The notes beneath the pieces were generated by a model, which searched no databases, had not been told where the DNA came from, and saw only the letters and a program-made list of their open reading frames with translations. 64,000 bases of DNA from a virus, in the IMG/VR virus record IMGVR_UViG_3300045988_179268, positions 96,001 through 160,000 of that record; one strand, 5' to 3'. Positions 37,192 to 51,635 of this stretch are shown in pieces (position 1 is the stretch's first letter; the number at the start of each line of letters is the position of its first letter). Both the position numbers and the translations under genes were made by a program.

Positions 37192-37399
37192 TTAGCATTA
37201 AAAAGTGCTAAAATGTTCCGCAAAAAGTTTGGAAAATCAGACCTGGAAATACGTCCCACAAGCGGCGTAAACTCTAGGCGCTTGATATATAACTACACAG
37301 ATAAATAAAAACCTCTCCAGCACCCCATACGCGGGCACATAGGGCAAGGAAGTCGAGCGCCAAGCCCTATAAAATCAGAGAGACTAACGGAAACAAAAT

Positions 37400-37447
37400 G
37401 GTAAGCCCCTAACCTTTTATTATGAAGGTTAGGGGCTTACCATTTTT
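37400..37447. terminator. bidirectional rho-independent terminator; left edge of the skewed module
   Basis: 15-bp stem ggtaagcccctaacc / ggttaggggcttacc. Flanked by aaacaaaa (U-tract for the minus strand) and attttt. Confidence 0.8.
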
Positions 37448-37458: not shown

Positions 37459-39102
37459 CTAAAACTCAAAAGCTGAAACGCCATCAAAAACAGACCCATC
37501 AGGGCGACACAAACGAATAGCGCGGATACGGTCATCACAACCATTCGCCAACGCCCACTCATTCACCTTACGCATCATACGGTCACCAGTACACAACCAC
37601 AATACCTGACCAAACACGCTCCTATCATCCTTATACTGCCCCAAAATAGTCTCCAAACGACCAGGCTTCTTACCGAAGCCACGCTCAATCTCAACAGCAA
37701 CACTGCGAGGCTCCCCATCCTCGCCACGCGGAACCATGCACACAATATCCGGCACATGGTACTTCGTCTCAGACGCACCACTCATTACCGCCCACATCCA
37801 CTCATTACCGCCGTAACACTCAGGAGAAACCCCAACACCACCAGCCGCACGCCAACTACGCAACACCTCACCACGGCGCGCAATCAAAACATCGCGCACG
37901 TCAAACCCAGCACGACCCCTAAACATTCCATGAATAGCGCCATTAATCACACGGTCAGGAATCACACTGAAACCACGAGCAACCTGCCCACCAACAACAC
38001 GACCACCAGATACTAAACCACCCAACCCCAAAACATCAACCGCACCATTCACCAACATCGCCCCCACATAATGAATAAGAGTACGATGCTGAAACTCGCT
38101 ATTACCCAGCGTCTTACGCGACACAGTAGCCCCACCAACACCAAACTCATCCAAACCCACACGTGTACCAACCCATACCGTATGACGCAAACCAGGAATG
38201 TCCACCGCCTCCAAACAGCCACGCCCCTGCAACCCCTTCAAATACTTCAACGCCGTAACCCTAGTAGAAACCCCCAACAACAACATCACAGCACGCACAT
38301 CAACCCAGCCAAACAGCCCAACAAACCCCATAATCTCAACCTCACGGCGCGAACCCATCAAACGCGGCGCAACACCACCATCCCCCTTGGAAGCCCTACG
38401 CACACGCTTCAAGCGCTCAGCCACAACATCCGGCGACTCACCAACCAACGGCGGAGACACAACATCAACCTCCCCAACACGAGACAGCCAATAAGAAGCC
38501 TGCTCCAACGCCAAACCATTAGAAACCTCAGTAGAACTCATACGCGAACCTCTCCCATCGTAATCAAAACGAAAACATGACAACTCACCAACACCAGCAC
38601 CTAGCCCCAAACCTCCCGGCGGCGCAACCAACCCACCTAACTCAACACCAACAGCATCACCTAAAGCCTCAACCCCCACACCAGACGCAGGAACAACAAA
38701 CCCATCCTGAATCGCCTCAAAATCAACACCATTCACGCCACCAAAAGACCACCTAGCGCGCGGAGTAACACCAAAAGAAAACCCGCCATGCACAAAAACA
38801 CCACCAACCGTAGAAACAACAGACCCATCCCAAACATACCCAGCACACTCCGCCGCAAAAGACCTAAACGCAACAGGAACCTGCGAAAAATCACGCACAC
38901 CCCGCGCACGCTCCAACACAGACCCATCCTCAACCGCAACACCAGACCCCAACACAAAACCATTCACCAAATGCCCAACACTGAACCCCGCATCACCCAA
39001 CTCACGAATAGACCCAGACCCAGAAAAAACATCCGGCGCTAAACCCTCAACAACCTTACGACCAACATTAACAACAGCCGAAGAAACAGACCCATCAACC
39101 AT
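37459..39102 (-). CDS. Replic_Relax (plasmid replication-relaxation)-like protein with G/V-rich N-terminal extension
   Basis: Start moved to ATG 39102 (GGAGG 7 nt upstream). wHTH-like VRAVMLLLGVSTRVTALKYLKGLQGRGCLEAV, HRTLIHYVGAML, and a PD-(D/E)xK-like VPDIVCMV...AVEIERGFGKK..LGQY. Confidence 0.55.
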   Translation of the reverse strand: MVDGSVSSAVVNVGRKVVEGLAPDVFSGSGSIRELGDAGFSVGHLVNGFVLGSGVAVEDGSVLERARGVRDFSQVPVAFRSFAAECAGYVWDGSVVSTVGGVFVHGGFSFGVTPRARWSFGGVNGVDFEAIQDGFVVPASGVGVEALGDAVGVELGGLVAPPGGLGLGAGVGELSCFRFDYDGRGSRMSSTEVSNGLALEQASYWLSRVGEVDVVSPPLVGESPDVVAERLKRVRRASKGDGGVAPRLMGSRREVEIMGFVGLFGWVDVRAVMLLLGVSTRVTALKYLKGLQGRGCLEAVDIPGLRHTVWVGTRVGLDEFGVGGATVSRKTLGNSEFQHRTLIHYVGAMLVNGAVDVLGLGGLVSGGRVVGGQVARGFSVIPDRVINGAIHGMFRGRAGFDVRDVLIARRGEVLRSWRAAGGVGVSPECYGGNEWMWAVMSGASETKYHVPDIVCMVPRGEDGEPRSVAVEIERGFGKKPGRLETILGQYKDDRSVFGQVLWLCTGDRMMRKVNEWALANGCDDRIRAIRLCRPDGSVFDGVSAFEF

Positions 39103-39165
39103 CAGGAAACCTCCAAAACTTATAAAGAAACTCGCAATCCACATAGCCGAAAACCCACGGCAATG

Positions 39166-39176
39166 TGTGATACAAT
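39166..39176 (+). promoter_or_regulatory. extended -10 promoter (tgTGaTACAAT) for the lipoprotein cassette
   Basis: tgtgatacaat matches the element-wide consensus. It interlocks back-to-back with the minus-strand -10. Confidence 0.45.
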
Positions 39177-39183
39177 CATACCA
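39175..39183 (-). promoter_or_regulatory. extended -10 promoter (TGgTATGAT) for 37459..39102
   Basis: The minus strand reads ttggTATGAT. ~70-nt leader to ATG 39102. Confidence 0.45.
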
Positions 39184-39216
39184 ACCAAACCCCCACCACA
39201 TCAAAGGAAAATCCCC

Positions 39217-39429
39217 ATGAAGAAGCTGTACAACATCGCAGGACTCACCTTAATCGCCACGCTTACCCTCACCGGATGCGGCAATAGTGAGAACACCCAA
39301 AAACCAGATACCACCAAGACATCCCAATCCGAAACAGACAGCCCACGCCGCGTAGTGAAACCCTGCGGGGCAGACACCACCGGCGACATTGAAATGGGTC
39401 AGGGACTCTGCGACCACGAAGAAAGGTAA
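39217..39429 (+). CDS. small lipoprotein
   Basis: MKKLYNIAGLTLIATLTLTGCGNSEN has a signal peptide plus the lipobox LTGC. RBS AAGGAAA. The tracked start 39163 would overlap the promoters. Confidence 0.6.
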   Translation: MKKLYNIAGLTLIATLTLTGCGNSENTQKPDTTKTSQSETDSPRRVVKPCGADTTGDIEMGQGLCDHEER

Positions 39430-39441
39430 CGAACAAACACT

Positions 39442-39720
39442 ATGGAATCATTCATCTACGGAGTTGTTAAAGTAACTCTCGAATACCACACGTACCCCAA
39501 TAACCCGGAAAAGAACCATATTGAAACCCGTGCATGGTACCTAGACGATAATAACAACAAAATTAAAACTGTCAGCACTAGTGACAACCCCCAAATGGAA
39601 GTAGTTCACGCCCTCTCAGAACACAACAAGCCAGTATACCAGAACGGTTTAGTGGGTGAGATGCTAGTCATTAATACAAATGACTACTCAATCTTCGAAA
39701 CCAAATACATTACCCACTAA
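39442..39720 (+). CDS. hypothetical protein (ordinary, AT-leaning composition)
   Basis: 92-aa ORF followed directly by a strong terminator. Confidence 0.55.
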   Translation: MESFIYGVVKVTLEYHTYPNNPEKNHIETRAWYLDDNNNKIKTVSTSDNPQMEVVHALSEHNKPVYQNGLVGEMLVINTNDYSIFETKYITH

Positions 39721-39726
39721 CAAAAA

Positions 39727-39773
39727 AGTATCCCTTAAACTCTCTACAGAGAAGAGTTTAAGGGATACTTTTT
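39727..39773 (+). terminator. rho-independent terminator
   Basis: 17-bp stem agtatcccttaaactct / agagtttaagggatact, then ttttt. Confidence 0.8.
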
Positions 39774-39787
39774 GCCCTATATTTTAA

Positions 39788-40588
39788 CTAACGCCAAGAC
39801 TCCGCGTGGTTCAAATCGCCTTCACAATACGCATAAACAACATCAAACATCTCAGGATACTGCTTAATAAACTCCGCCGGACTCATGCCAGCATACGCCA
39901 AACTAGGACCACCAATCAAAAGCGCCGTCTGAGTCGAACTAAAAGCATCGGAAGACCCATACACCCCCAAAAGCTTCACAATATCCTCCCTCACAGAACC
40001 GCCCTCAAACTGGAAACCAGGGTACCCCATGACACCCACCCACGCCGGATGCTTCGAAAAATCGGACAAAGGGAACCTAAGCACACGATTACTCTTAACC
40101 ATCTCCTCCAACTCACCCGAAGTCACACCCAAATACTCACAGACAGCACGCTCCGTATAGACACCCTGCAAATCTTCACCAAACACCGACTCCACGGCAG
40201 TAAGACCCCTTGAACCCTTGGCGACGGCAGTGTCAATCCCCTCACAAATGTAAGAAGTAAGCTTCTCCCCGTCACCCTCAGCGACATCAAGATACCCCGC
40301 CTCGCACAAGTCATCAACAGCCTTGCAAAGCATCTCCTTAACCCCCTCAACAGTTAGCGGGAACTTGCCTCTACCACCATAAGCAGAATAATAAGGCTGA
40401 GAACCCTCACGTTCACGAAGCATAAACAGCCCAACAGCCGCACAACAATGAAACAGCAAAACACGTTGAAGAGACTCAGTAATCACAACATCACCAGAGC
40501 CAACCTTCACATCAACATACTCACAAACCTCCTGCTTCACACCAGCAAGAACCTCAGCCTGCGCACTAGAAATAACACGAGAAGACAT
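39788..40588 (-). CDS. hypothetical protein, HTH-like plus C-terminal 'FQF...SP' module (family 2)
   Basis: 266 aa. ERAVCEYLGVTSGELEEMVKSNRVL, GYPGFQFEGG and LIGGPSLAYAGMSPAEFI. Confidence 0.55.
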   Translation of the reverse strand: MSSRVISSAQAEVLAGVKQEVCEYVDVKVGSGDVVITESLQRVLLFHCCAAVGLFMLREREGSQPYYSAYGGRGKFPLTVEGVKEMLCKAVDDLCEAGYLDVAEGDGEKLTSYICEGIDTAVAKGSRGLTAVESVFGEDLQGVYTERAVCEYLGVTSGELEEMVKSNRVLRFPLSDFSKHPAWVGVMGYPGFQFEGGSVREDIVKLLGVYGSSDAFSSTQTALLIGGPSLAYAGMSPAEFIKQYPEMFDVVYAYCEGDLNHAESWR

Positions 40589-40629
40589 TAAGCAACCCCC
40601 ACAATAGAAAGAAAAATAAGTGCAAAACT

Positions 40630-40638
40630 ATGATACCA
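40630..40638 (-). promoter_or_regulatory. extended -10 promoter (TGgTATCAT) for 39788..40588
   Basis: The minus strand reads tttggtatcat ~40 nt upstream of ATG 40588. Confidence 0.45.
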
Positions 40639-40713
40639 AACAAGGCAACACAAACACTAAAAACTGGGAGGGGTGAAACAAAAAACTTCACCCCTCCCAG
40701 CACCTACAAACGG

Positions 40714-41910
40714 CTACCCGCAATACCGCACAACCGCAAGAACCGCATCCACATACTCATCACCAAGACGCGCATACTCAACAGGCGCAACCAACCCAAA
40801 CCACGGCGACGGACTCTCCAAAAACTCAACAATACGGTCATCACCCCAACCCCAATCACGCAACTCACCCACAAGACGCACAGACCCAGAGAAAAACACC
40901 CAATCAATCACTAACCCATCATCCCCATAAACAGGCATCAGATGCACACCCTCAACAATATAATCGCCATCCCCATACTTCCCCGCCAGCAACTCGCCAG
41001 ACTCACACATACCCGCCACTACATCCTCAGGAACCCCCAACCCCTTAGCTACCTTGTGGGGTGGCAAACCAGCCCAACGGACACCATTAGAACGCTCATC
41101 AATACTAGCGAAACGGTGAACCAAAACACCCCACGGGACACGCAAAACCTCAGCCAAAGCCCCCAAATCAGCCAAAGAACCGCCACCCACAGACGGAACA
41201 ACACCTGCCACCGTCAAAGCAACAACATTCCCCGGCACTGGAACATTACCCACACCAGCACGCCCCCACGCACGCCCAACAACCTCAGCGCGCCGCCCCA
41301 ACGCACATTCACGCGCATCATCCAACACAAGAGCAACCAGAGCCTCATCACCCGACATCAACAACTCAGCCGCCGACAAAAACCCATACTCAAACGACGG
41401 CGTGAACAAAAAATCATCAGTAATATGAGGCTTCACACCAACAGCCCTGAACATCTTCACACACTCAAAAAACTCAGGGTTAAACCTCAAAGCGCCCTCA
41501 CCAGACACACTCCAAACTCCCTTACCGGCACCACCCCAAAACTGGGCACGAGTAAACAGCAAAGCACCCTCCCAGATGCCACCATTAAGGTAACCCTCCT
41601 CATACAGGCGCATCACCTCAGTGCCCGGCAACCCCTTATCCTCCAGCTCAGCCAAAGACAACCCGTCACCCCACTCACAATAAATACCCCACCCGGCAGA
41701 ACCGCCTCCAAACGCTTCCTCCAAACGCTCATACATGAACTCAGTAGAGACACCAAGAACACTAGAAACTAGCTCAAAATGCTCATTCTCCCAATCATAA
41801 GTAGACTTGGGAAGCCCTAAAGAACGAACCCTCAACACATCCTCAGCAGAGAAAAACTTGAAGCCAGGGTACTCATCAAAAACATTGTGCAACATGGAAG
41901 TAGCCTCCAA
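40714..41910 (-). CDS. hypothetical protein (family 2, duplicated module)
   Basis: 398 aa. GGAGG RBS before ATG 41910. G/V/W-rich. C-terminus FLESPSPWFGLVAPVEYARLG. Confidence 0.55.
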   Translation of the reverse strand: MEATSMLHNVFDEYPGFKFFSAEDVLRVRSLGLPKSTYDWENEHFELVSSVLGVSTEFMYERLEEAFGGGSAGWGIYCEWGDGLSLAELEDKGLPGTEVMRLYEEGYLNGGIWEGALLFTRAQFWGGAGKGVWSVSGEGALRFNPEFFECVKMFRAVGVKPHITDDFLFTPSFEYGFLSAAELLMSGDEALVALVLDDARECALGRRAEVVGRAWGRAGVGNVPVPGNVVALTVAGVVPSVGGGSLADLGALAEVLRVPWGVLVHRFASIDERSNGVRWAGLPPHKVAKGLGVPEDVVAGMCESGELLAGKYGDGDYIVEGVHLMPVYGDDGLVIDWVFFSGSVRLVGELRDWGWGDDRIVEFLESPSPWFGLVAPVEYARLGDEYVDAVLAVVRYCG

Positions 41911-42054
41911 AAGAAAAACAAAAATACTTGCACTCCCTATAATACCCCCCCCCTCAAAAAATCAAGAAAACACGCCGGTAAACATCTCTAGATACAATAC
42001 ATCCCACGCATAGAAGAGAATTAGAACACCCCTAAAGAGCATCCATCGCAAATA

Positions 42055-42065
42055 TGTGGTACAAT
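42055..42065 (+). promoter_or_regulatory. extended -10 promoter (tgTGgTACAAT) for 42179..43000
   Basis: Exact match to the island consensus. The ~110-nt leader contains the perfect hairpin ggttgagg-tgag-cctcaacc (42077-42096). Confidence 0.5.
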
Positions 42066-42178
42066 CTAAACATGAAAGGTTGAGGTGAGCCTCAACCCAC
42101 CACCCCACCCTAACCATACAGGGAACCCAAAAAAGGGGCGAACACCCAATCATTAAACACAGAAAGAGAGCATCAACA

Positions 42179-43000
42179 ATGCGAAACATCACCCCCTTCC
42201 TCTACTGGGAAACCCTCAACACCAACGACGGTATCCTCCTCATCCCCACCGACAACACCACCAACGACCGCATGGCAATCTACACCATCGACCAGGTAAC
42301 CAACACCGACCACGCCACCGCACGCCTGCGCCACGCAAGCTTCAACGCACCCAAGACCATCACCCTCACCCGCACCAACGGACAGCTCACCACCAACGAC
42401 CTACCAGACCTCAAAGCCGTAAACATCGGCACCCGAGGCGACGCTATCGAACCCACCTACTACGCCGTCGAAAACGACGACAACATCACCATCTGGTACA
42501 GCACCGAACACTACAACGACATCGCCATCGCACACACCCTCAAAGCCAACGGAGAAACCCGCGTAATCTTCCACGAACCCGACGAATACGATACCCCCGA
42601 AGGCGGGTACAACATCTGGACAGTCCTCCAAGCAACCGAAAACTACGAAGACACCGACACCCTCCCCGAAACCTTCAACATCCCAGAAGCCAACACCGCA
42701 CCTCTCACCCCCGAAACCGCACTAGCACTCCACGACACCCTCAACCACCCCGAATACCACACCCTCAACGACAAAGAAACCCTCGAAGAAGAACTAATCT
42801 CCCTCTGGCAAAACATCTCAGACTACTACGCAATCCCTGGCGAAATGCACTGGGTATCCGACACTGAAATCCTCTGGCGCGCCAAAGACTACCTCACCAC
42901 CGTACACGACATCGCAATCAAAGAAGGACGCGCCAACCTAGCCAACCAAACCCTCCACCACATCAACACCATCACCACCCACACCAACTACGAAGAATAA
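42179..43000 (+). CDS. hypothetical T/N/D/H/E-rich protein (A+C-rich coding strand)
   Basis: 273-aa ORF with diverse, protein-like sequence (..ILWRAKDYLTTVHDIAIKEGRANL..). It has its own promoter. Only one short mirror ORF lies antisense. Confidence 0.55.
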   Translation: MRNITPFLYWETLNTNDGILLIPTDNTTNDRMAIYTIDQVTNTDHATARLRHASFNAPKTITLTRTNGQLTTNDLPDLKAVNIGTRGDAIEPTYYAVENDDNITIWYSTEHYNDIAIAHTLKANGETRVIFHEPDEYDTPEGGYNIWTVLQATENYEDTDTLPETFNIPEANTAPLTPETALALHDTLNHPEYHTLNDKETLEEELISLWQNISDYYAIPGEMHWVSDTEILWRAKDYLTTVHDIAIKEGRANLANQTLHHINTITTHTNYEE

Positions 43001-43021
43001 CCCCCAAAACACCAAAAGATA

Positions 43022-43057
43022 CCCCTGGCAACCCGCACAAACACGGGAAACCAGGGG
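43022..43057 (-). terminator. hairpin terminator, U-tract only on the minus strand
   Basis: cccctgg / ccagggg with inner cccg / cggg. The minus strand continues tatcttttggtgtttt. Lies 27 nt after the stop of minus ORF 43084..45360. Confidence 0.55.
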
Positions 43058-43083
43058 CATCTTCCTATACCACCAACAACACA

Positions 43084-45360
43084 CTAACCACCCAAAACCG
43101 ACACAACCTCACCCACCGAAACACCCAACCCCAACACCGGCGAACCAACCGGCACATCAACCCAACCACCAGAAACACCCCAACCAGAACGACCAAACAA
43201 CCCAGCAGACCCACCACCACCAGAAACAACCCCCACCGGCGAACCAAACCCCTCACTACCAGCCACAAACCCCAAACCCAACCCACCATCCAAACCACCA
43301 CGCCCAGAAACAACCGAACCAACAACACCAGACAAAACACGCCCACCAACAGACCCCAAAACACCATCCAAACCACCACGCAACAACCCCCACAAAACAC
43401 CAGAACCCAAACCCGCAACCCTACCAAACACCGGACAAACCCCCGACAACCCCAAACCACCACCAACACCAGACACCACATCAACCAACCCCACCACAGA
43501 CGAAACACCCCTCAAACCACCAACCAAAGAACCCACCGGCGACCCACCAGGCAAAACACCACCACCAAACACACCCGACAAACCCCCAACACCCCACAAA
43601 CCAGACACACCATCAACCACACCACCACAAGAACCAGCAACCCCCACCGACAAAACACCACCACCAAACACCGACCCAAACCCCACAGGAACAAGCCCCG
43701 CCCCAAACACAAGAGAACGCCACAACCACCCATCAACATCAACCACAGCCCCAACACCCCCATCAACAAAACCACCATCAACATCAAAACCCTCAACAGC
43801 ACCAACAACACCAGACACACCCGGCACAAAACCACCAGCCCCAACACCCCAAACACCAACCCTACGCCCAAAACCAGCCCCAACACCACCACCACCCAAA
43901 ACACCCAAACCAGCAGACGACAAACCCCAAGAACAAGACAACCCGCCAACACCAGAAACACCCCCACCAACCGGCAACCCAAAAACCCCAACAACACCCG
44001 ACAAATCAACACCAAACCCCGAAACAGAACCCAAACCAGCCAACGCATCCAACCCAGACACCCCCGACACCAACCACGGCACAGCAACCCCAACACCACC
44101 AGAAACCCCACCAACATCCGCCGCACCAGCACCCACACCACCAAACCCAGCAGAGCCAACCCCACCAAAATCAACCCCACCGACAAAATCACCAACGGGC
44201 AAACCAATCGGCAAACCGCACACCCCAGACCCCATAAACAACCCCACTGGCGAACAACCCAACATGCCCAATAACCCATCAACCCCACCAGCCACAGAAC
44301 CACCAAACCCAGACGAAGAACCAAACCTCACGCCAGAACCACCCACAACACCAAACAAACCCGAACCTCTAGAAGCCCCCACAGACCTATTAAAACTAGT
44401 AGAAGGTAAAACAGTACCGCCAATAGACAAAACACCCTCAGAAGCCCCCTCAAGCCCCGTAGAAACCCCCTCTATAGTAACCCCATCAGTAGCAGGCTCA
44501 GAAAACTCCTCGCCACCACCCCAAAAACCCTCAACAAAACCGCCACCAACACCAACCCCCACAAAACCCCCAACACCATCCACAACACCAGACGAGCCCC
44601 ACCCCACCGACACACCAACCCCCACAGGCTCAACAAAACCGGCACCACGAAGCGAACCACCCCAAACACCAACCCGCCCATCAACCCCCAACAACCCAAC
44701 AACACCAGAATCAACGCCCCACAACTCAACACCAACCCCACCCGGAACAAACACCCCACACACACCACCAGACAACCCATCCCCCAACAACCCAGAACCC
44801 AAACCACCAACACCAACACCAGACTCCAAAACACCACGCCCAACAACCACAACAACCACACTCCAAAAAAGAAAAAACAAAAAAATAGTACACCACAAAC
44901 ATAGCCACAAAAACACCCCCACCCAGACAACCCCCAAAAAACAAAACCCCCAACACCCACCCAACAAACAAAAACCCCACAAAAACACCCCCACAACAAA
45001 AAAAACCAAACCAACCACCCCAAGCAAACCCCAAAAAACAACGCACCACAAACCCAAAACCACACAAAGAACTTGGGCAACACTAAAAATAAACACCAAA
45101 AACACGAATAACCAAGACACAAGACACAAGAGAAAAGGAAAAAGCAACAAGACATAACAGACACAGACACGCAAAGAGGAAAGCAATAACACTACAAAGA
45201 AAGAAGTACCCAGGATAAACAGATACACAAAATAAACACCAATACACGACAGACATAGAGGATAAGCGCAGACACATACACCATAAACAGAAAGAAGCAC
45301 AGGCACACAATACGCAAGCACAGAAAAACACGAAGGCAACAACAGATACAAGAGACACAC
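43084..45360 (-). CDS. candidate G/V/S-rich low-complexity protein (start uncertain; coding strand unresolved)
   Basis: 758-codon stop-free frame, with a minus-strand terminator just downstream. Composition resembles the G/V-rich N-terminus of 37459..39102. The N-terminal C/W/F-rich 170 aa look unnatural. Confidence 0.3.
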   Translation of the reverse strand: MCLLYLLLPSCFSVLAYCVPVLLSVYGVCVCAYPLCLSCIGVYFVYLFILGTSFFVVLLLSSLRVCVCYVLLLFPFLLCLVSWLFVFLVFIFSVAQVLCVVLGLWCVVFWGLLGVVGLVFFVVGVFLWGFCLLGGCWGFCFLGVVWVGVFLWLCLWCTIFLFFLFWSVVVVVVGRGVLESGVGVGGLGSGLLGDGLSGGVCGVFVPGGVGVELWGVDSGVVGLLGVDGRVGVWGGSLRGAGFVEPVGVGVSVGWGSSGVVDGVGGFVGVGVGGGFVEGFWGGGEEFSEPATDGVTIEGVSTGLEGASEGVLSIGGTVLPSTSFNRSVGASRGSGLFGVVGGSGVRFGSSSGFGGSVAGGVDGLLGMLGCSPVGLFMGSGVCGLPIGLPVGDFVGGVDFGGVGSAGFGGVGAGAADVGGVSGGVGVAVPWLVSGVSGLDALAGLGSVSGFGVDLSGVVGVFGLPVGGGVSGVGGLSCSWGLSSAGLGVLGGGGVGAGFGRRVGVWGVGAGGFVPGVSGVVGAVEGFDVDGGFVDGGVGAVVDVDGWLWRSLVFGAGLVPVGFGSVFGGGVLSVGVAGSCGGVVDGVSGLWGVGGLSGVFGGGVLPGGSPVGSLVGGLRGVSSVVGLVDVVSGVGGGLGLSGVCPVFGRVAGLGSGVLWGLLRGGLDGVLGSVGGRVLSGVVGSVVSGRGGLDGGLGLGFVAGSEGFGSPVGVVSGGGGSAGLFGRSGWGVSGGWVDVPVGSPVLGLGVSVGEVVSVLGG
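44264..45157 (+). CDS. alternative reading: P/T/K/N-rich disordered protein (frame open from 43088)
   Basis: By hand translation the plus frame is stop-free over 43088-45157, but there is no ATG/GTG/TTG before 44264 and no RBS. Shares wobble positions with the minus ORF. Confidence 0.2.
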   Translation: MPNNPSTPPATEPPNPDEEPNLTPEPPTTPNKPEPLEAPTDLLKLVEGKTVPPIDKTPSEAPSSPVETPSIVTPSVAGSENSSPPPQKPSTKPPPTPTPTKPPTPSTTPDEPHPTDTPTPTGSTKPAPRSEPPQTPTRPSTPNNPTTPESTPHNSTPTPPGTNTPHTPPDNPSPNNPEPKPPTPTPDSKTPRPTTTTTTLQKRKNKKIVHHKHSHKNTPTQTTPKKQNPQHPPNKQKPHKNTPTTKKTKPTTPSKPQKTTHHKPKTTQRTWATLKINTKNTNNQDTRHKRKGKSNKT

Positions 45361-45709
45361 AAAAGAAGATAAGAGGCAACACAGTACGTATACACAAGAA
45401 AGGCAAAAGAAGCATAAAGAGAGGACATAAGAGCGGAAGGCACATATATGCTAGAAACACATAGGGATACACGCAGACTAAGTAATACACGACAGGTATA
45501 GAGAGGGTAGGTAGATAGGGTAAGCACGCATAGGATGGCACACGGTATATACGGAGGGGCTAGAAACGGTTAGTGGGTGTGAGTGGTGGTAGGTTGGGCA
45601 GGGTGGAAGGTGGTGTGGTGGTTGGGTGTGGTGTGGGTCATATTGCTCACGCGGTTGGTTGCTCTTTCCCTTTTTTCTTTCTCCTTTTCTTGTGTTTTTG
45701 GTAGCGTGC

Positions 45710-45772
45710 TGTGGCGCGGGGTATTTTTGGGTGTTTCGGTATGTGGGGGAATGTATCATTTGCCCTAGTCAG
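45710..45772 (+). repeat. 63-bp direct repeat, copy 1
   Basis: tgtggcgcggggtatttttgggtgtttcggtatgtgggggaatgtatcatttgccctagtcag is identical to 45955-46017. Confidence 0.9.
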
Positions 45773-45811
45773 GACGTTTTTGCGTTTTGGGTGACAGGGC
45801 TGTAGTAGTGG

Positions 45812-45843
45812 CTTAAAATCAACCTGTAGAAGTTGATTTTAAG
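45812..45843 (+). terminator. hairpin 40 nt after repeat copy 1
   Basis: cttaaaatcaac / gttgattttaag, then gtgtttt. Confidence 0.4.
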
Positions 45844-45954
45844 GTGTTTTATATAGATTTTTGAGGTGAATTGGGTTGTCTGCGTCTTTGGCGCAGGGGT
45901 TTTGGTGGTAATTATGACGTTTTTTAGGTTTTTTGGGTGGGTTTTTGTGTGCAT

Positions 45955-46017
45955 TGTGGCGCGGGGTATTTTTGGGTGTTTCGGTATGTGGGGGAATGTA
46001 TCATTTGCCCTAGTCAG
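45955..46017 (+). repeat. 63-bp direct repeat, copy 2
   Basis: Identical to 45710-45772. The two tracked ORFs read the repeat in different frames, so it is probably non-coding. Confidence 0.9.
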
Positions 46018-46058
46018 CGCGTTATGCACTTTGGTACAGATTCTCATTTTCAGGGGTT

Positions 46059-46086
46059 AAAAATCAACCTCCAGGGGTTGATTTTT
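46059..46086 (+). terminator. hairpin 42 nt after repeat copy 2 (same stem core as 45812-45843)
   Basis: aaaaatcaacc / ggttgattttt. Confidence 0.4.
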
Positions 46087-46220
46087 GGTAAGCGCATGGT
46101 GCGAGCGCGATTTTAAGCCTTGGTGCCGGGGTGTCGAAGGATGGTTTTTATTGCTTTGCGGGTGCCAGGTGTGGTAGGTTGCGCCATTGTGTATCACAAG
46201 CTTGCGTGTCGTCTATTTTC

Positions 46221-46231
46221 TGTGGTATAGT
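46221..46231 (+). promoter_or_regulatory. extended -10 promoter (tgTGgTATAGT)
   Basis: tgtggtatagt lies 77 nt before ATG 46308. The leader has hairpin ggcgggtaa-tcg-ttacctgcc. Confidence 0.5.
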
Positions 46232-46307
46232 TATAGGGTAATCATATGGCGGGTAATCGTTACCTGCCGTTATTCTTCATCTTGTTCCTATGGAGGGATT
46301 GTTAGTT

Positions 46308-46661
46308 ATGGCTTTTAGTGTTGAGATTCAGGTTAGGGCTAAGAACACTTATGCCCGGTTGGTGTGTTCTTTGTCTGAGATTGGTGCGCTGTTCTCTACG
46401 GGCAGTTTTGTGAAGGCGGCGGTTTTGAATTTGGCGATGTTTGATGCGAGCGCTTCGTCTGCTAATCCTAGTGTGTGGGATGGGGTGGATGAGAAAGAGC
46501 GTCGCTTGCAGTGGTCGTACAATGAGTTGCGTAACCTTGCGTCTTCTTTTGCCCCCGATTGGGCTGAGGCTGTTGCTAAGGATGATGAGGCGCTGGCTTT
46601 GGAGATTTTGAACGCTGTGGATGATGTGGTTTCTTATGCGCGTGAGCGTGTATTTGGTTAG
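46308..46661 (+). CDS. hypothetical protein
   Basis: ATG 46308 after GGAGGG is preferred over the tracked start 46290. 117 aa. Confidence 0.55.
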   Translation: MAFSVEIQVRAKNTYARLVCSLSEIGALFSTGSFVKAAVLNLAMFDASASSANPSVWDGVDEKERRLQWSYNELRNLASSFAPDWAEAVAKDDEALALEILNAVDDVVSYARERVFG

Positions 46662-46675
46662 CACTGTCTTGTGTT

Positions 46676-46732
46676 AGCGAAGGGGCGGGTTCCTGTTTGG
46701 GTTCCCGCCTCGCTTCTCTACTTTTGGTTTTC
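46676..46732 (+). terminator. hairpin plus T-rich tail
   Basis: agcga..ggcggg / cccgcc..tcgct, then tctctacttttggtttt. Confidence 0.6.
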
Positions 46733-46830
46733 TGCTTGGGTGAGTGTGTGCTTGCTTGGGTGGCATGTTTTGTTTTTGTGGGTGGGTGTTCTGCCTGCTT
46801 CATTGAGTTTATTGAAAGGGAGTTTTGTTG

Positions 46831-47916
46831 ATGTCTGTTTTTCCTGGTGATGTTGTGTCTACTGTTGTGGGTGTTCTGCATGTGCAGACTATTGTTATGG
46901 AGCGTTCGCGTGAGGATGTGTCTTTCGCGGTGTCTGGTGTTGATGGTGGGGGTGTGGTTCACTCGAACATTCCTATTGGTGAGGGTGTGGTTCCGTTGGC
47001 TGTTGATGTGCCTGAGTCTGAGGCGTTGGTGTGGTTTGACCGTGAGCGTCGCTTGAAGCGTTTGGGGGATGCTGTGTTTAGTCCTGGTGATGGTGTTAGG
47101 GCTTTGGGTAAGCTGATGGAGGGGCAGGGTGTTGAATTGTCGTTGTCTGACTGTGAACCTGCTGAGGCTGTTGTTAGGTGGCTGGGTGAGGTTGAGGCTT
47201 CTCTGGTTGGGGCGAGGGCGTGGGTTACAGGGAAGCGTATGGAGTGCCTGCGTGCGTTTGAGGATTTTCATGCGGGCTGGTTGAAGTATCATAGTCGCCC
47301 TTGGGGTGAGCCGTCTTTGGGTGAGCGTTGTGATGTGCGACCTGGTATTGGGTTTAGGTCTGGTGGTGTGTATCGGTTCCGACGTGAGGGTGCGCCTATT
47401 GAGGATGGGTATGAGTATTTCAAGGTTGTTCGTACTGTCGGTCAGCCTGAGATTGTTATTTATGGTGCGTCTACTGAGGTAAGTGAGTGTCTGGGTTTTA
47501 TTCATGGTGTTAAGTATGGTCCTAACTATGATTATCTTCTCCTGCTGGCTGAGGTTGGCGGTAAGAAGATTTCGATGCTGGCGGATACTGTGAAGCTTCT
47601 GCCTATTGGTTCTTTTGAGGATATTGAGTCTTACCTTGAGTTGAGTGAGTATGAGGACGTTTCTCTTCCTGGCGCATTGCGCAACATTTTCCTTGACCTG
47701 TTTGCCGCTGGTGACGGTAAGCCTAAGTGCCTGCCCTCCCGTGAAGAGCTTAACGGTGGCTACTACGGTTGGGGTGATGACTACGGTAAGCGTTGTGGTG
47801 AGTTGATGGAGGCAAGTGCTGACATTCTGTTCGATATTGAGAAGAGTATCGGGTATGTCCGGTGGTTGCGTGAACAGCTGGTAGGCTTCTATCGTGAGCT
47901 AGGGTTCACTATCTAG
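46831..47916 (+). CDS. family-1 paralog (V/G-rich, G+T-recoded copy)
   Basis: Aligns with 52996..54063 and 60347..61120 (VSGV, WFD, ARAWV..KR.ECL, VYRF, GKPKCLPS, FDIEKSIGYVRW). RBS GAAAGGG. Confidence 0.65.
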   Translation: MSVFPGDVVSTVVGVLHVQTIVMERSREDVSFAVSGVDGGGVVHSNIPIGEGVVPLAVDVPESEALVWFDRERRLKRLGDAVFSPGDGVRALGKLMEGQGVELSLSDCEPAEAVVRWLGEVEASLVGARAWVTGKRMECLRAFEDFHAGWLKYHSRPWGEPSLGERCDVRPGIGFRSGGVYRFRREGAPIEDGYEYFKVVRTVGQPEIVIYGASTEVSECLGFIHGVKYGPNYDYLLLLAEVGGKKISMLADTVKLLPIGSFEDIESYLELSEYEDVSLPGALRNIFLDLFAAGDGKPKCLPSREELNGGYYGWGDDYGKRCGELMEASADILFDIEKSIGYVRWLREQLVGFYRELGFTI

Positions 47917-48161
47917 GGGGGTCGCCGCCTAGGGAGGGGTGGCGTATGGGAGCCGCTGAATCCTCCGGCTACTAGGTTTGGGTGACCGCTCTTGTAGTTG
48001 ATGGCGAGCGCTCTCTTGGGCGGCTATGTCTTAGTGGTGGTTGTTTGCTGGTTGCTTCGCTAAGTGTGGTGATGGGTGTGAGTGCTTGAAGGGTGCTCAT
48101 GCCCATCATTTGTTTCTGCTGGGGTGAGCCACACACTATAGCTTGCGCCCCCGTCTGAATC

Positions 48162-48172
48162 TGTGGTATAAT
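48162..48172 (+). promoter_or_regulatory. extended -10 promoter (tgTGgTATAAT)
   Basis: tgtggtataat lies 70 nt before ATG 48242 (RBS GAGGAG). Confidence 0.55.
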
Positions 48173-48241
48173 TAAATTGTTCAATCGGGGGTGTTTCCCG
48201 TAAAGCCAATGACCAATACGCATGTTTGAGGAGTCACACAA

Positions 48242-48640
48242 ATGTCCTGCGCTGTTAAGATGATGAAGCCCTACACTTACACCACCCTTCCCTTTACCGC
48301 TACCAGCACTGCCCACATGGGCGATGTTGAGTCATGGGTTTCTTCTAAGATGACTCTTGAGTTCGTATCCTGGGATTCAGGTGAGGAGGCTCACGTTACT
48401 TATGGGGTGCAGGCGACTAACCCGGCTAAAGAGCCTGGCGATGACGGCTGGTTGATTGGTCGTGTGACTATGAGTGTTGATGTTGAGGGTGAGGTTGCTC
48501 TGAGTGATGCTCTTATGCGTCGTATGGTGGAAGACTTTAAGGTTGTGATGCGTAATCGTGTAGCGCAGGGTCAGGCTCTTGTGGACTTTGAGGGTGGGGT
48601 TCCGGTCTTTAAGCAGACTGTGACGTTCGCTACCGTGTAG
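48242..48640 (+). CDS. small acidic hypothetical protein
   Basis: 132-aa ORF with promoter, RBS and a downstream hairpin (aaagccg..cggcttt). Confidence 0.6.
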   Translation: MSCAVKMMKPYTYTTLPFTATSTAHMGDVESWVSSKMTLEFVSWDSGEEAHVTYGVQATNPAKEPGDDGWLIGRVTMSVDVEGEVALSDALMRRMVEDFKVVMRNRVAQGQALVDFEGGVPVFKQTVTFATV

Positions 48641-48775
48641 TAGGTGGCATGTGTTAGCTTTAAGCCGTGGGGTGGCTTCCTGTACAGGGGTTGCTTTGCG
48701 GCTTTATTTATGTTTCCTGTGACTTATATGTGGTTGTGGTGTTTCCACCTCGTAGGTTGCCTCAATGTTTCACTG

Positions 48776-48786
48776 TGTGAGATAAT
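48776..48786 (+). promoter_or_regulatory. extended -10 promoter (tgTGaGATAAT)
   Basis: tgtgagataat. The transcript would begin at the RBS-loop hairpin 48793-48812. Confidence 0.45.
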
Positions 48787-48855
48787 GGGTATGAGTACTT
48801 AGGAGGGTGCTCATGTTAATTATTTATTTTCTTGTGAAAGGAAGGTGTGCCTGTT

Positions 48856-49032
48856 ATGGGTGTTGTGAAGGGTGGTCGCTCTTTGGTTCGTGAGTCTGGT
48901 GTGGTTCGTTGGGATGATGGTTCGCGCCTGTTTGGTGAACGGTTTGCGAGCGCCAACTATAAGGTCACTATCGGGCGCGTTAATGTTGGTACTGCTGAGG
49001 TTGGCATTGGGTCGTCTGAGGGGCGGAGGTAA
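48856..49032 (+). CDS. small hypothetical protein (58 aa)
   Basis: ATG after GAAAGGAAGG. Its stop lies next to the GGAGG of the following small gene. A micro-ORF (48813-48893) overlaps it in another frame. Confidence 0.4.
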   Translation: MGVVKGGRSLVRESGVVRWDDGSRLFGERFASANYKVTIGRVNVGTAEVGIGSSEGRR

Positions 49033-49035
49033 GGC

Positions 49036-49209
49036 GTGCCTATTTGGGTTATTGCTTTAGAATCCTATGTCCTAATTATGGTTCTAGTTTTCAGTCTTGG
49101 CATTGCTCTTGATGTGAACATGAGGAGTCTTGTTGAGATGCTTGCAGTGATTCATATACCTGTTCTTATTGCCGCCGGTGTAGCTCACTTTGGGCTACAC
49201 ATAATCTAG
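49036..49209 (+). CDS. 57-aa small membrane protein (below track cutoff)
   Basis: GTG 6 nt after GGAGG (49025-49029). VPIWVIALESYVLIMVLVFSLGIAL...IPVLIAAGVAHFGLHII. Confidence 0.45.
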   Translation: MPIWVIALESYVLIMVLVFSLGIALDVNMRSLVEMLAVIHIPVLIAAGVAHFGLHII

Positions 49210-49247
49210 GTGACTTTCGATTGCCACTTATAACAGGAAGGTGAAGT

Positions 49248-49409
49248 ATGGGTCTGCTGATTATTGTCTTGGTTTTTGTTTTGATTGAGGCTTTACTTTC
49301 TCTTGTTGGGGTGTGTCTTGGTTGGGGTGCCTATGAGTACTTAATGATACATGTTGTACTGTATGGCGTTACGTTTGTTGTGGCAGGTTCCAGTATGACC
49401 TCTGTGTAG
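49248..49409 (+). CDS. 53-aa small membrane protein (below track cutoff)
   Basis: ATG after AGGAAGG. MGLLIIVLVFVLIEALLSLVGVCLGWG...VVLYGVTFVVAG. Confidence 0.45.
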   Translation: MGLLIIVLVFVLIEALLSLVGVCLGWGAYEYLMIHVVLYGVTFVVAGSSMTSV

Positions 49410-49503
49410 ATGACGGCTAGGTGTTGTACGTGGTGTGCGGCTAACTAATATAGTTCTTTGTGTCCCACTTCACACATATTTGGCTTGCATACAGTTTTAA
49501 ATC

Positions 49504-49514
49504 TGTGATAGACT
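49504..49514 (+). promoter_or_regulatory. extended -10 promoter (tgTGaTAGACT), with TTGCAT -35 at 18-nt spacing
   Basis: aatctgtgatagactata is nearly identical to the boxes at 55920 and 57231. Confidence 0.55.
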
Positions 49515-49586
49515 ATAAATATAAGGCAAGCGGGAAAGAAACCCGAAAGCCACGAAGCATCAACCAACTACCGAAGGGTGGCAACC

Positions 49587-49901
49587 ATGTCCGTCGCAAC
49601 TTTCAACTTTGAGCTTTCCGCTGAGGAACTTGCAGAGCTTGCACCCCACGCAAACTACGAGTACTCCAACTGCTGTGAAGTCAAGGTAGACCACATCGAC
49701 ATTAACGACTACGATAACACCATCACCCTTACTCTAGGAAATGACCACGGTGCGCATGAGGTGGATGCTACCCCTGAGTCTGCTGAGGACTTCGAGGCAC
49801 TTACCTCTCGTTACGAGGGAGACGAGATTGCCGGGTACCGTCTCGACAAGGCTATCTACAGCCTCGACCCCGAAGATGGAGAGGTTGAAATCAACATCTA
49901 A
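49587..49901 (+). CDS. small highly acidic protein
   Basis: ATG 49587 follows GAAGGG + 8 nt. By my count 26 D/E versus 4 K/R in 104 aa. Confidence 0.65.
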   Translation: MSVATFNFELSAEELAELAPHANYEYSNCCEVKVDHIDINDYDNTITLTLGNDHGAHEVDATPESAEDFEALTSRYEGDEIAGYRLDKAIYSLDPEDGEVEINI

Positions 49902-50100: not shown

Positions 50101-50853
50101 ATGACTGAGAATAGCCACAAGGAAGCGCCCGCATGGGTGGAGGTCACTCCTGATACTGTTACTGCGCCCGCTGACTTGTTGCGTGTGGCTAACGTTGTGT
50201 TCGACCTGTTGAGGGCGTTTCGTGTTGATGAAGACCCGGACTTGAAGGAAGCTATTGAGAGGGCTTTAGATTGGGATACGAACGCGGCTAAGGGTAAGGT
50301 GCCCTATCATATTCTGGAGCCTCTAAAGGCTTTGCCTAGCCGTGAGGTCATTGATGCCCGCATTGACTATTATAGGCATGAGATGCAGGCGGGGCGTGTA
50401 GATAACATGTGCGGTATTCCTGCGTTCCTTAGTGGTTCTATGCTTACGGCTGATGAGGTGTCCCGCAATACTGGAATCCCGGAAGATGAGCTTCTACGTG
50501 AAGCGGATTCGTTTGCTTCACGGTTTGTTACAGACCTTGAGTATGAGGATGCTGATGGTAATGAGTCGCCGCGTTTCTACTCAGAACAATTTAAGCCGGA
50601 TGGGACGCTTGATGACCGTAAAGCTGACTATATTTCTGCGGCTGGGAATTACTTTAACGATGCGCCGGGGTTCTTCCATGACGTGTTTTCACCTCAGCTG
50701 ATTTTGGGTTATGTTAGCCCGGTGGCTTATGCCGCTTTGAGCGATGAGCATCTGGAGGCGTGCAAAGAGACGAACCGCCTGTACATGGAGTGCTGGGACA
50801 TCACCGCTGACGACGACATCGAAGACCTAATGTTCCCCTACGAAGAAGAGTAG
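50101..50853 (+). CDS. hypothetical acidic protein, family 2 (HTH-like plus FQF/SP module)
   Basis: LTADEVSRNTGIPEDELLREA, PRFYSEQFKPDG and ILGYVSPVAYAAL parallel 39788..40588. Confidence 0.6.
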   Translation: MTENSHKEAPAWVEVTPDTVTAPADLLRVANVVFDLLRAFRVDEDPDLKEAIERALDWDTNAAKGKVPYHILEPLKALPSREVIDARIDYYRHEMQAGRVDNMCGIPAFLSGSMLTADEVSRNTGIPEDELLREADSFASRFVTDLEYEDADGNESPRFYSEQFKPDGTLDDRKADYISAAGNYFNDAPGFFHDVFSPQLILGYVSPVAYAALSDEHLEACKETNRLYMECWDITADDDIEDLMFPYEEE

Positions 50854-51629: not shown

Positions 51630-51635
51630 TGCGCC

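Follow-up and report, generated by a model that had tools for sequence, protein, structure and literature searches.

An abrupt A/C-to-G/T strand switch upstream of a relaxase-like gene in a superfamily of large, apparently conjugative elements

What makes several kilobases of DNA run almost entirely on two letters, and why do these letters change from A and C to G and T at a single point? The question is raised by a locus in the IMG/VR virus record IMGVR_UViG_3300045988_179268, of which we analysed positions 96,001 to 160,000, a stretch of 64,000 nucleotides that we refer to as the window and to which all coordinates below apply unless a related locus is named. An earlier note, made from the sequence alone, had pointed out a strongly skewed module of about 12 kb, and the three base counts that it gave are exact (54 of 60 nucleotides A/C in 43081-43140, 16 T in 43088-43800, and 36 of 40 G/T in 45601-45640). 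In the left arm of this module (37,459-45,540) the plus strand has a keto (G+T) fraction of 0.238, i.e. 76% A+C, with a GC skew of -0.49 and an AT skew of +0.56, and these values are even more extreme in 43,084-45,100 (keto 0.112, 89% A+C, GC skew -0.71, AT skew +0.85). In the right arm (45,570-49,430) the signs are reversed, with a keto fraction of 0.681 (68% G+T), a GC skew of +0.35 and an AT skew of -0.38. Local extremes reach a GC skew of -0.8 and an AT skew of +0.95, and silent sites are 85-99% two-letter. Here we report that a directional substitution pressure, specific to the outward strand and independent of genes, emanates from this site on both sides, and that it is real, conserved and distance-dependent.

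To locate the switch, we compared the 1.5 kb to the left with the 1.5 kb to the right of every position in the window. The biggest A/C-to-G/T step, +0.545, is found at 45,500 and lies 14 standard deviations beyond the steps at 1,196 control positions away from the module (standard deviation 0.039, maximum 0.137). The composition flips within about 500 bp at 45.5 kb, and the cumulative GC skew of the 64-kb window has its minimum at the switch. The polarity is that of an origin, as had been proposed, since G and T are enriched, on both sides, in the strand that runs 5' to 3' outward from 45.5 kb. The flip is graded: G begins to replace C from about 45,050, but T takes over from A only at about 45,550, i.e. 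the GC skew flips about 400 bp before the AT skew, and because of this order the interval 45,100-45,500 is A-rich and T-poor and has the lowest GC of the region. The GC content of the module equals that of the flanks (0.49 for the window), and the purine fraction is 0.49-0.53 in all segments.

The force behind this pattern acts on the DNA strand and not on genes. Third codon positions are 85-99% G+T on the outward-running strand, whichever direction the gene takes. In the module, third positions are 85-91% G+T in minus-strand genes and 76-88% in the plus-strand genes of the right arm, while an inward-facing plus-strand gene for 273 amino acids (42179-43000), whose coding strand is the A/C-rich one, has a third-position A+C of 0.93; the bias is thus a property of the DNA strand, as the earlier note had stated. 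The inward-facing gene has normal codon periodicity and is conserved in the related loci L001-L003 (a 274-amino-acid homologue is called in L001), and codon-position statistics throughout the module are those of ordinary protein-coding DNA with an extreme third position. Among genes located up to 8 kb from the switch in five lineages, the median outward-strand third-position G+T is 0.81 for outward-facing genes (n = 41) and 0.75 for inward-facing genes (n = 17). The same behaviour is seen within a single gene. At 42 fourfold degenerate sites under residues identical in five VirB11-like ATPase orthologues, coding-strand G+T amounts to 0.07 in L004, where the A/C strand is the coding one, to 0.93 in L010, where the gene is inverted and the G/T strand is read, and to 0.33-0.43 in the other three.

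These observations bear on an explanation by transcription, in which strong divergent transcription from the switch would create long-lived R-loops, the displaced sense strands would be deaminated, and the G-richness of the RNA would reinforce the process. Most arm genes of the window do point outward, with the G/T strand as sense strand, the step at the left edge of the module coincides with a strong terminator, a strongly skewed stretch in L010 matches a block of co-oriented genes, and G runs and a purine tract are located at the switch. However, the inward genes carry the same strand skew as the outward ones, half or more of the arm genes face inward in L007 and L001, and the secretion-system genes of L004 reach 0.92 although they are antisense to the supposed transcript. 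Furthermore, the decay in L021 remains smooth where gene orientation changes, neither strand of a two-letter stretch can contain a TATAAT-type -10 box, and a scan found no promoter for the leftward unit. We therefore consider this option, which the earlier note had left standing, to be quite improbable.

The strand bias weakens with distance from the switch. Across 124 genes in five lineages the Spearman rho between skew and distance is -0.45 (p 1e-7), with large scatter, and the medians of successive distance bins are 0.87 (<2.5 kb), 0.85, 0.66, 0.62, 0.64, 0.59 and 0.58 (25-46 kb). In L021 the values across the orientation change run 0.96, 0.90, 0.76, 0.73, 0.70 and 0.57, and the decay is also monotonic in L020. 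Up to about 5 kb from the switch silent sites are close to saturation, and over about 10 kb the effect fades. The extent of the skew differs widely between lineages, with the skewed domain reaching the backbone secretion genes in L004, L010 and L021, and the skew is patchy gene by gene; L007 has an island of four unskewed genes between skewed ones. At 39.1-42.0 kb the genes of L001 are unrelated to those of the window, and skew is present in either set.

Both edges of the module had been described as sharp and the flanking DNA as ordinary. On the left, this holds for the lineage of the window, in which outward-strand third-position G+T drops from 0.91 in a gene for a protein of 581 amino acids (37459-39204, minus strand) to 0.68 in the neighbouring ATPase gene. 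This real step falls across a perfect 20-bp hairpin at 37398-37443, which is terminator-like on both strands and lies between the two convergent genes. Equivalent hairpins are present in L001, L004, L007 and L010. As the determinant of the boundary, the hairpin was rejected, because in L004 strong skew runs past the equivalent hairpin. The right edge did not hold up: the segment 49468-49901, with a gene for 107 amino acids (49578-49901, third-position G+T 0.42), is an unskewed island and not the end of the domain, since the skew returns to the right of 49.43 kb, with third-position G+T of 0.70 in 50101-50853 and 0.72 in 54653-55831. This tail of the G/T arm (50101-55831, plus strand) alternates between skewed and unskewed genes (0.47 in 52870-54063). 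Nor are the flanks ordinary: with keto fractions of 0.433 to the left and 0.547 to the right they are skewed in the same sense, though less strongly, with all flank genes on the plus strand, and in a relative the weak left-flank skew extends at least 10 kb past the window edge.

The switch is not peculiar to the window. Homologues of the 581-amino-acid protein are encoded on metagenomic contigs of 190-370 kb from ENA and Logan and of 56-360 kb from IMG/VR, and the same A/C-to-G/T step with the same polarity was found at 15 related loci, which represent at least 10 lineages from three sources (ENA, Logan, JGI) with a GC of 0.37-0.61 and contigs of up to 437 kb. The step is always located 0.3-7.6 kb upstream of the 581-amino-acid homologue, which itself always lies on the G/T arm and faces outward. 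A profile scan of IMG/VR retrieved eight distant loci (28-32% identity, GC 0.37-0.61, contigs of 35-437 kb), and in all eight the step lies 0.3-5 kb upstream of the gene, again outward-facing and on the G/T arm. The skew switch is a hallmark of this locus across a wide superfamily. The ancestral order is likely to be the switch, a short gap and then the gene, with extra genes in between in the window lineage.

The relatives also decide on two further explanations. A chimeric join or strand-specific base-conversion damage has nothing in its favour beyond the odd composition itself, and since all loci from independent sources carry the step, misassembly and sequencing damage are excluded. Assemblies from ENA, Logan and JGI/IMG-VR, made with different assemblers, agree over many lineages, and the region shows 1-70% divergence, normal codon periodicity and conserved proteins, so that we give an artefact practically no weight. 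The earlier note had named relatives with the same proteins and no skew as the result that would speak for an artefact, and the opposite came out, the relatives being skewed as well. The second explanation, also raised in that note, takes the 12 kb for a foreign replicon of small size that brought its own origin and skew into a large element by cointegration. The sharp left edge in the window lineage would suit it, as would the presence of a Replic_Relax-like gene and a repeat-rich non-coding region in the module. However, in all lineages, even at a protein identity of about 30%, the locus occupies the same backbone position beside the ATPase, ParA-like and VirB4-like genes, its GC equals that of the flanks, and its internal genes turn over while the skew is kept. 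The skew also spreads into the backbone secretion genes of L004, L010 and L021, and no free-standing small replicon of such a kind was found in PLSDB or INPHARED. A cointegrate is therefore highly unlikely.

The window looks like a part of a large uncultivated conjugative element of about 319 kb; an identical copy of a 363-amino-acid protein of the right arm is encoded on a contig of 319,497 bp. The window encodes an SbcC-like ATPase, an M23 peptidoglycan hydrolase, SSB, a DnaB-type helicase, a RecG-like helicase and a YdjM-family protein, as well as a PrgI-like protein, a VirB4-like AAA_10 ATPase, a ParA-like ATPase and a VirB11/T2SSE-type ATPase, and it contains no tRNAs. Compared with known proteins, identity is only 27-28% for the VirB4-like protein (plasmids) and 23-27% for the DnaB-like protein (phages). 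A megablast search with 37-50 kb against PLSDB and INPHARED gave no match, and the ATPase found only uninformative 28%-identical matches from Patescibacteria among the GTDB representative genomes. The family as a whole is filed as viral in IMG/VR and is absent from PLSDB, INPHARED and the GTDB representative genomes. Window positions 1-37191 together with L017 1-20792 form an unbroken plus-strand array of large open reading frames of at least 55 kb, which points at the switch and carries the SbcC-like, M23 hydrolase, SSB, DnaB, RecG-like, PrgI, VirB4-like, ParA-like and VirB11-like genes; on its coding strand A exceeds T, with an AT skew of about +0.2 to +0.3, and C exceeds G. In the window family the VirB11/T2SSE-type ATPase gene (35626-37191) is convergent with the relaxase-like gene, i.e. 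the gene of the 581-amino-acid protein, whereas it is inverted and co-directional with it in L010/L011 (L010 12959-14494).

What, then, is the protein that accompanies the switch? A profile search of 1.84 billion representatives yielded 455 clusters that share the C-terminal ~330 residues of the 581-amino-acid protein; family members comprise 500-1000 amino acids and have variable N-terminal halves. The 39 diverse members examined all have P485, D486, E505 and E507, and K512 is found in at least 90% of them, which amounts to a PD…ExE…K pattern. An AlphaFold model based on nine homologues shows a disordered, G/V-rich N-terminal half and a C-terminal winged helix followed by an α/β domain. A fold search with this model, which is good enough only for the winged helix, recovered only winged helices of the MarR type, and the nuclease domain, modelled at moderate confidence, gave no fold match of its own. 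PF13814 (Replic_Relax) has a PD-(D/E)XK fold, is usually fused to a helix-turn-helix and is annotated for plasmid replication and relaxation (PMC3424549), and it represents the MOBC relaxase superfamily in CONJscan (PMC5357655). The predicted winged helix and PD-(D/E)XK-type core with conserved acidic and lysine residues give the 581-amino-acid protein the make-up of a MOBC protein. The label "Replic_Relax-like" of the earlier note is borne out transitively, as 15 of the 39 diverse homologues match PF13814 (best E 6e-6), but not directly, as the window protein and its eight closest relatives have no PF13814 match at E<=1 and the window protein itself matches no Pfam, PHROG or NCBIfam model. 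By transitive homology only, the protein thus appears to be a distant relative of the Replic_Relax/MOBC relaxases. Searches with tblastn gave no match for this protein and two less biased members (P0014, P0046) in PLSDB or for P0046 in INPHARED, and nothing was found for the 581-amino-acid protein in the GTDB representative genomes. Across the family representatives P0011-P0158 the excess of G, V, W, F, L and C over K, N, T, H, Q and P residues ranges from -0.20 to +0.45, with the distant members P0039, P0135 and P0075 as biased as the window protein; from this range it follows that the degree of skew varies widely and that skew recurs across the family.

The switch itself lies within a non-coding centre (44,881-46,290) of ordered composition. 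It begins with an A/C stretch (44881-45100, about 97% A/C on the plus strand, with 0-3 G and 0-3 T per 50 nt in 44,900-45,049), in which insertions and deletions relative to L001 are not multiples of three. The switch zone proper (45100-45560, GC 0.38-0.41) is first A-rich and T-poor (A about 50-60%) and then purine-rich, and it is followed on the plus strand by a G/T-only segment rich in G runs (45570-45640), a T-rich pyrimidine tract (45640-45700) and two units of repeat and hairpin (45710-46095, spaced by 245 nt). The graded order A/C, A/C/G, A/G, G/T is also found in L001, L004, L007 and L010, which have counterparts of the G-run segment and the pyrimidine tract as well. The hexamer GCTAGA occurs at 45450 and 45559, but was rejected as an iteron: it clusters at the switch in three lineages, yet in the rest of the window it is no less frequent than expected by chance.

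Each of the two units, which represent a candidate binding or nick site, consists of a 69-nt repeat (45710-45778 and 45955-46023, 97% identical) with a conserved motif TTTGCCCTAGTCAG..GCGTT and of a hairpin of 11-13 bp, AAAATCAACC..GGTTGATTTT (45815-45840 and 46060-46085), with fold z-scores of -6.8 and -3.8. The consensus of the core motif is TTTGCC(C/T)(T/A)(A/G)GTCAG.GCGTT, and motif and hairpin recur in L001, L004 and L007. As a conserved element to the right of the switch, the motif of about 20 nt (TTTGCCYNNGTCAG.GCGTT) and the hairpin (..ATCAACC..GGTTGAT...) are each present in two copies in the window, L001 (about 2570-2900) and L004 (about 6500-6770) and in one recognisable copy in L007 (about 1920-2010). 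At the same position L010 has a different pair of 20-nt repeats (TTT[AG]CTCTAGGGGTGGAA). The segment 45710-46095 does not code for protein, since there is no conserved ATG, and the small minus-strand open reading frames 45478-45759 and 45769-46047 were rejected, their ATG not being kept in L001. Searches against Rfam at gathering and E-value thresholds matched no family.

How could such a site rewrite the DNA on both of its sides? We tentatively favour, at close to but short of an even chance, that the region is a conserved cis-acting hub with a site at about 45.1-46.1 kb that is opened for transfer or replication, i.e. an origin of transfer (oriT) and/or of replication (oriV), and whose outward strands are single-stranded for long. 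A strand-opening site is suggested by five points taken together: the domain is anchored to a relaxase-like nuclease gene, repeats and hairpins are conserved, the skew decays with distance and is indifferent to gene direction, and it depends on how long a gene has resided there. The hub would pair the non-coding site with the nearby MOBC/Replic_Relax-like nuclease gene, a link between nuclease and target site that is suggested by position only. The duplex would be opened at this site for transfer and/or replication, and, as unwinding or leading-strand synthesis moves outward, the strands running outward 5' to 3' would be displaced or would serve as the lagging-strand template. If these strands spend an unusually large share of their time single-stranded, C to T and A to G changes by deamination or an equivalent lesion specific to single-stranded DNA could occur on them far more often than the reverse changes. 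Genes that have resided there for long would become ever more skewed, and recently inserted genes would still be ordinary. The conversion would be of the transition type (A<->G, C<->T), which predicts both the constant purine fraction and a kept third-position preference for pyrimidines, and this preference is indeed kept, outward genes favouring T and inward genes C. The most economical cause is still single-stranded DNA that persists for long.

Several points weigh against a site opened for transfer or replication. No replication initiator, DnaA boxes or proven nick site were found at the switch, and the scanned open reading frames of the window contain no Rep, DnaA or Rep_3 domain. The plus-strand gene array on the left (at least 55 kb) would be head-on to a fork leaving the site, and in L024-L026 and L010 the skew is null or reversed beyond about 4-10 kb, so that the site is not clearly a replichore boundary and the domain is a local one. 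Ordinary replication exposes the lagging-strand template only briefly, and a saturation of about 95-99% needs a rate asymmetry of about 50- to 100-fold or more. The patchiness needs recombination and gene turnover in addition, both of which are supported by patchy divergence: among the close relatives L001-L003 and L004-L006 one kilobase may hold 0-1 differences and the next about 200, a sign that recombination among family members is frequent. Moreover, conjugative transfer alone exposes one strand and predicts no flip of sign. Resection 5' to 3' from a double-strand break at the site was rejected as a cause on reasoning only, as it predicts the opposite polarity.

The exposure of one strand during transfer counts equally against an attack by deaminases, encoded by the host as a defence or by the element, on single-stranded DNA while it is processed in the donor or once conjugative entry has begun, by which the DNA close to the site, single-stranded for the longest time, would be hypermutated repeatedly: a single polarity would be expected, and no flip. 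The position of the domain, centred on the presumed target of a relaxase-like protein and beside a Gram-positive type IV secretion system, is in line with such an attack, as is the very high rate asymmetry that is needed, and the depletion of A to the same degree as C fits enzymes better than spontaneous chemistry. However, no deaminase domain was detected in the scanned open reading frames of the window, and we know of no natural adenine deaminase of the required kind that acts on single-stranded DNA. This explanation is very unlikely.

The depletion of both bases is also where plain spontaneous deamination fits poorly. In spontaneous deamination and in vertebrate mitochondrial DNA, C is depleted more than A. 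On the G/T strand, pooled values are 0.072 for A/(A+G) and 0.092 for C/(C+T), i.e. A is as depleted as C, which speaks against a simple version of the single-strand exposure described above; a stronger depletion of C than of A, the order expected of deamination, was seen only in the AT-rich L020. When substitutions were polarised among L001-L003 with the window as the outgroup, A to G (0.028 per site) and C to T (0.019) proceeded about 2.5-3 times faster on the G/T strand than the reverse changes (0.008-0.009). Total counts in the two directions are roughly balanced (29 vs 46), as would be expected near equilibrium.

The variation among close relatives brings in a different explanation, namely that the two-letter composition itself is selected, with ordinary mutation and with purifying selection that removes A and C from the outward strand, be it for a strand without primase, nuclease or restriction sites or for an A/C strand that is unable to fold when single-stranded. 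At third positions of a core gene in the left arm (43,084 to about 44,880), variable sites among five close relatives comprise 55 exchanges between G and T and 17 transitions, compared to 32 G/T or A/C sites and 245 transitions in three flanking secretion-system genes, a 25-fold shift. The silent sites of the core are hence dominated by changes that keep the rule. Each of the 13 keto/amino variants seen as singletons is a new A or C, and the ratio of A/C variants to G/T variants is 0.72 among singletons and 0.22 among older variants, from which it follows that A and C are short-lived on the G/T strand. This may reflect very fast reversion by hypermutation or selection, as both fit; likewise, the excess of G<->T changes and the dearth of transitions, which count against the opened-site hypothesis, fit purifying selection against A and C equally well. 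The about equal exclusion of A and C is in line with selection too, as is the non-coding interval 44,881-45,100, which is as pure as the silent sites.

Six-base palindromes might appear to be a reason for such selection, since there are 1.5 per kb in the core and 6.5-7.9 per kb in the flanks. However, when corrected for composition, the observed/expected ratio of palindromes in the arms (0.48-0.56) is not below that in the flanks (0.44-0.52), and an extra counterselection of palindromes in the arms was rejected accordingly. In the whole window six-base palindromes are at about half of expectation (observed/expected 0.44-0.56) and four-base palindromes at about 0.75-0.8; the deficit is a trait of the whole element that resembles restriction avoidance, and not of the skewed arms. 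Further evidence also speaks against selection: the skew decays gradually with distance through unrelated genes, including secretion genes, with no stop at a functional boundary, and its extent varies widely among lineages. The G/T strand, which can form G·T pairs and G-quadruplexes, is not free of structure, and the cost in protein sequence is large, while no benefit can be named. Taken together, we regard selection for the composition as unlikely.

The cost to proteins is evident in the core gene itself. A real gene occupies the minus strand from 43,084 to about 44,880 and encodes a conserved protein rich in Gly, Val and Ser, with about 560-630 amino acids (third-position G+T 0.97; the 5' end is approximate). 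Insertions and deletions relative to L001 are multiples of three and cease to be so upstream of about 44,650, and the protein is 74% identical to its counterpart in L001, 45% in L004 and 47% in L007, with conserved blocks. The L004 protein is less biased and contains many K, N, T, Q, M, I and Y residues, which in the window protein are swapped for G, V, L and W, i.e. residues with codons of G and T only; the pressure has therefore rewritten the protein, about three-quarters of whose ~600 residues are G, V, S and L. A P/T-rich surface protein on the plus strand of the core was rejected as a mirror artefact, as there is no start codon before 44,264. Periodicity cannot tell the two frames apart, because they share the third codon position, and it is the conservation of the minus-strand protein in four lineages that supports the minus frame over the plus frame.

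Two-letter DNA of this kind contains no stop codons on either strand and offers abundant GTG and TTG starts on the G/T strand, and it therefore gives rise to many long spurious open reading frames. Examples are 43065-45541 (minus) and 44264-45157 (plus) in the window, 7160-7825 in L004 and 2434-3183 in L007. Among them are "proteins" rich in Cys, Val, Leu and Phe, which gene callers accepted in the relatives, and the mirror-image P/T-rich frame.

The remaining genes of the module vary in their conservation. Between the 581-amino-acid gene and the inward-facing gene, the minus strand carries two lineage-specific genes (39788-41910; 39788-40588 for 266 and 40714-41910 for 398 amino acids, third-position G+T 0.87-0.88), which are absent from L001, where other genes are found. 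A hairpin CCCCTGG...CCAGGGG (43023-43058), with a T-rich tail on the minus strand, separates the inward-facing gene from the convergent core gene. The right arm contains three outward genes on the plus strand (46290-48640) for 123, 363 and 132 amino acids with third-position G+T of 0.88, 0.85 and 0.76. The gene for 123 amino acids is conserved. The 363-amino-acid gene (46825-47916) is widespread, with 249 clusters, the best 120 of which are at least 60% identical and lie on contigs of up to 376 kb, but while L002 has it, its close relatives L001 and L003 do not, and we conclude that it is accessory; its AlphaFold model is poor, with a predicted local distance difference test (pLDDT) of 55.8. 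Neither the module proteins nor the homologues of the core gene matched Pfam, PHROGs or NCBIfam, and sequence searches of the PDB gave nothing useful.

The unskewed island of the right arm (49468-49901, plus strand) consists of a promoter-like cassette (CTTCACACATATTTGGCTTGC ... TATAAAT) and the 107-amino-acid gene, and similar cassettes occur in L004. The cassette (CTTCACA..ATTTTGGCTTGC..N..TA(C/G)ACTATA(A/T)A) precedes genes for small acidic proteins, some of them skewed and some not, with one copy in the window (49468-49530) and two in L004 (about 5130-5200 and 5960-6040, in minus orientation). Further to the right, the skewed gene 54653-55831 encodes a protein of 392 amino acids that matches two PHROG families of no known function (E 3e-25 and 1e-22) and weakly the YdcK family.

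Does any known system account for the switch? Searches of the literature on extreme skew, on G/T- or A/C-rich strands and on asymmetry of leading regions found no description of such a feature, and the literature searched does not mention composition skew around MOBC oriT sites. The locus resembles replication skew of the Lobry type in that G exceeds C and T exceeds A on the strand leaving the switch, in that there is a single point of abrupt sign change, and in the weak skew of like sign that extends through the flanks to the ends of the window. It differs in being a local domain of about 4-10 kb per arm with decay instead of a plateau over a replichore, and in being anchored to a relaxase-like gene instead of a recognised replication initiator; the skew of whole replicons usually does not exceed about 0.1-0.3. 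With vertebrate mitochondrial DNA it shares the axis of G+T versus A+C, a comparable strength at silent sites, the independence of gene orientation, a gradient that fits the time spent single-stranded and an amino-acid composition that is dragged along. Unlike there, the asymmetry is bipolar around an internal site and covers a few kilobases of an element of about 319 kb, and A is depleted as much as C on the G/T strand. To our knowledge, a strand asymmetry this strong is otherwise known only from animal mitochondria.

Modules of oriT and MOBC relaxase from Firmicutes and Actinobacteria are similar in combining a protein with a winged helix and a PD-(D/E)XK-type domain with secretion genes of the Gram-positive type, here for the VirB4-like AAA_10, PrgI, M23 hydrolase and VirB11-like ATPase proteins, and with an upstream non-coding region that bears repeats and hairpins, but the window protein stays below every Pfam threshold, its family is much larger in size (500-1000 amino acids) and it has no relatives in PLSDB by tblastn. 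The leading regions of conjugative plasmids enter the recipient first and in single-stranded form, and they carry anti-defence genes and ssDNA promoters. As in these regions, a special composition and small genes without known function are found beside a probable oriT. In a 2026 survey of Enterobacterales plasmids, however, leading regions showed mild effects, namely a higher GC, a more variable GC skew and some depletion of palindromes (PMC13478746), whereas the skew described here is orders of magnitude stronger and present on both sides of the site with opposite signs. Unlike leading regions, the arms contain no ArdA-, PsiB- or Ssb-type genes (no matches in Pfam, PHROGs or NCBIfam), the SSB gene being 30 kb away, and the genes face away from the site on both sides, mostly with the G/T strand as sense strand, where transcription of the incoming strand would require otherwise.

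Of the elements described so far, the nearest to the element as a whole are the Hodor conjugative megaplasmids of the human gut, which have 211-389 kb, a GC of 44.6-47.1%, Rep_3, ParA/ParB/ParM, sortases and an HD-nuclease (MOBH-like) relaxase (bioRxiv 10.64898/2026.02.21.707213; PMC12934698); the words "skew" and "strand" do not occur in that paper (PMC12934698). Like Hodors, it is hundreds of kilobases long (its ~319 kb lie within their range), uncultivated, equipped with conjugation genes of the Gram-positive type, filed as a virus and nearly absent from plasmid databases, and it has a large non-coding region of the kind taken as the origin in Hodors; the window also contains a ParA-like gene. 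Unlike Hodors, it has a PD-(D/E)XK-type relaxase-like gene and a GC of 0.49, and no Rep_3, sortase or HD nuclease was found in the 64-kb window. A relation of the element family to the Hodors is possible. Inocle elements were rejected as relatives, as their GC is 24-32%.

None of the systems compared covers a local, bipolar and nearly saturated domain, and the locus could represent an undescribed mode of DNA processing in a giant conjugative superfamily (150-440 kb, GC 37-61%). A MOBC-like nuclease would open the site, both strands would be displaced outward over several kilobases, and hypermutation of about 100-fold or more, or an active upkeep of the two-letter state, would follow. We regard this stronger form as rather unlikely; if it were true, the site would mark itself with a near-binary signature that rewrites the resident proteins.

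What the switch means for these elements depends on its cause. An extreme asymmetry is here local, bipolar and anchored to a relaxase-like gene, it is found in mobile DNA of the bacterial type and it is conserved over 24 GC points. If it is mutational, it would serve as a natural record of the place, direction and duration of single-strandedness in uncultured elements, and the core protein would illustrate that local mutation pressure can override selection at the protein level. If it is selected, a site of transfer or replication would have an unknown need for two-letter DNA that is not self-complementary. Two-letter stretches also call for caution with gene callers, given the long spurious open reading frames and mirror-image "proteins" that they yield. 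Either way, the switch offers a simple sequence signature by which such sites, and the superfamily of elements that carries them, may be located in metagenomes.

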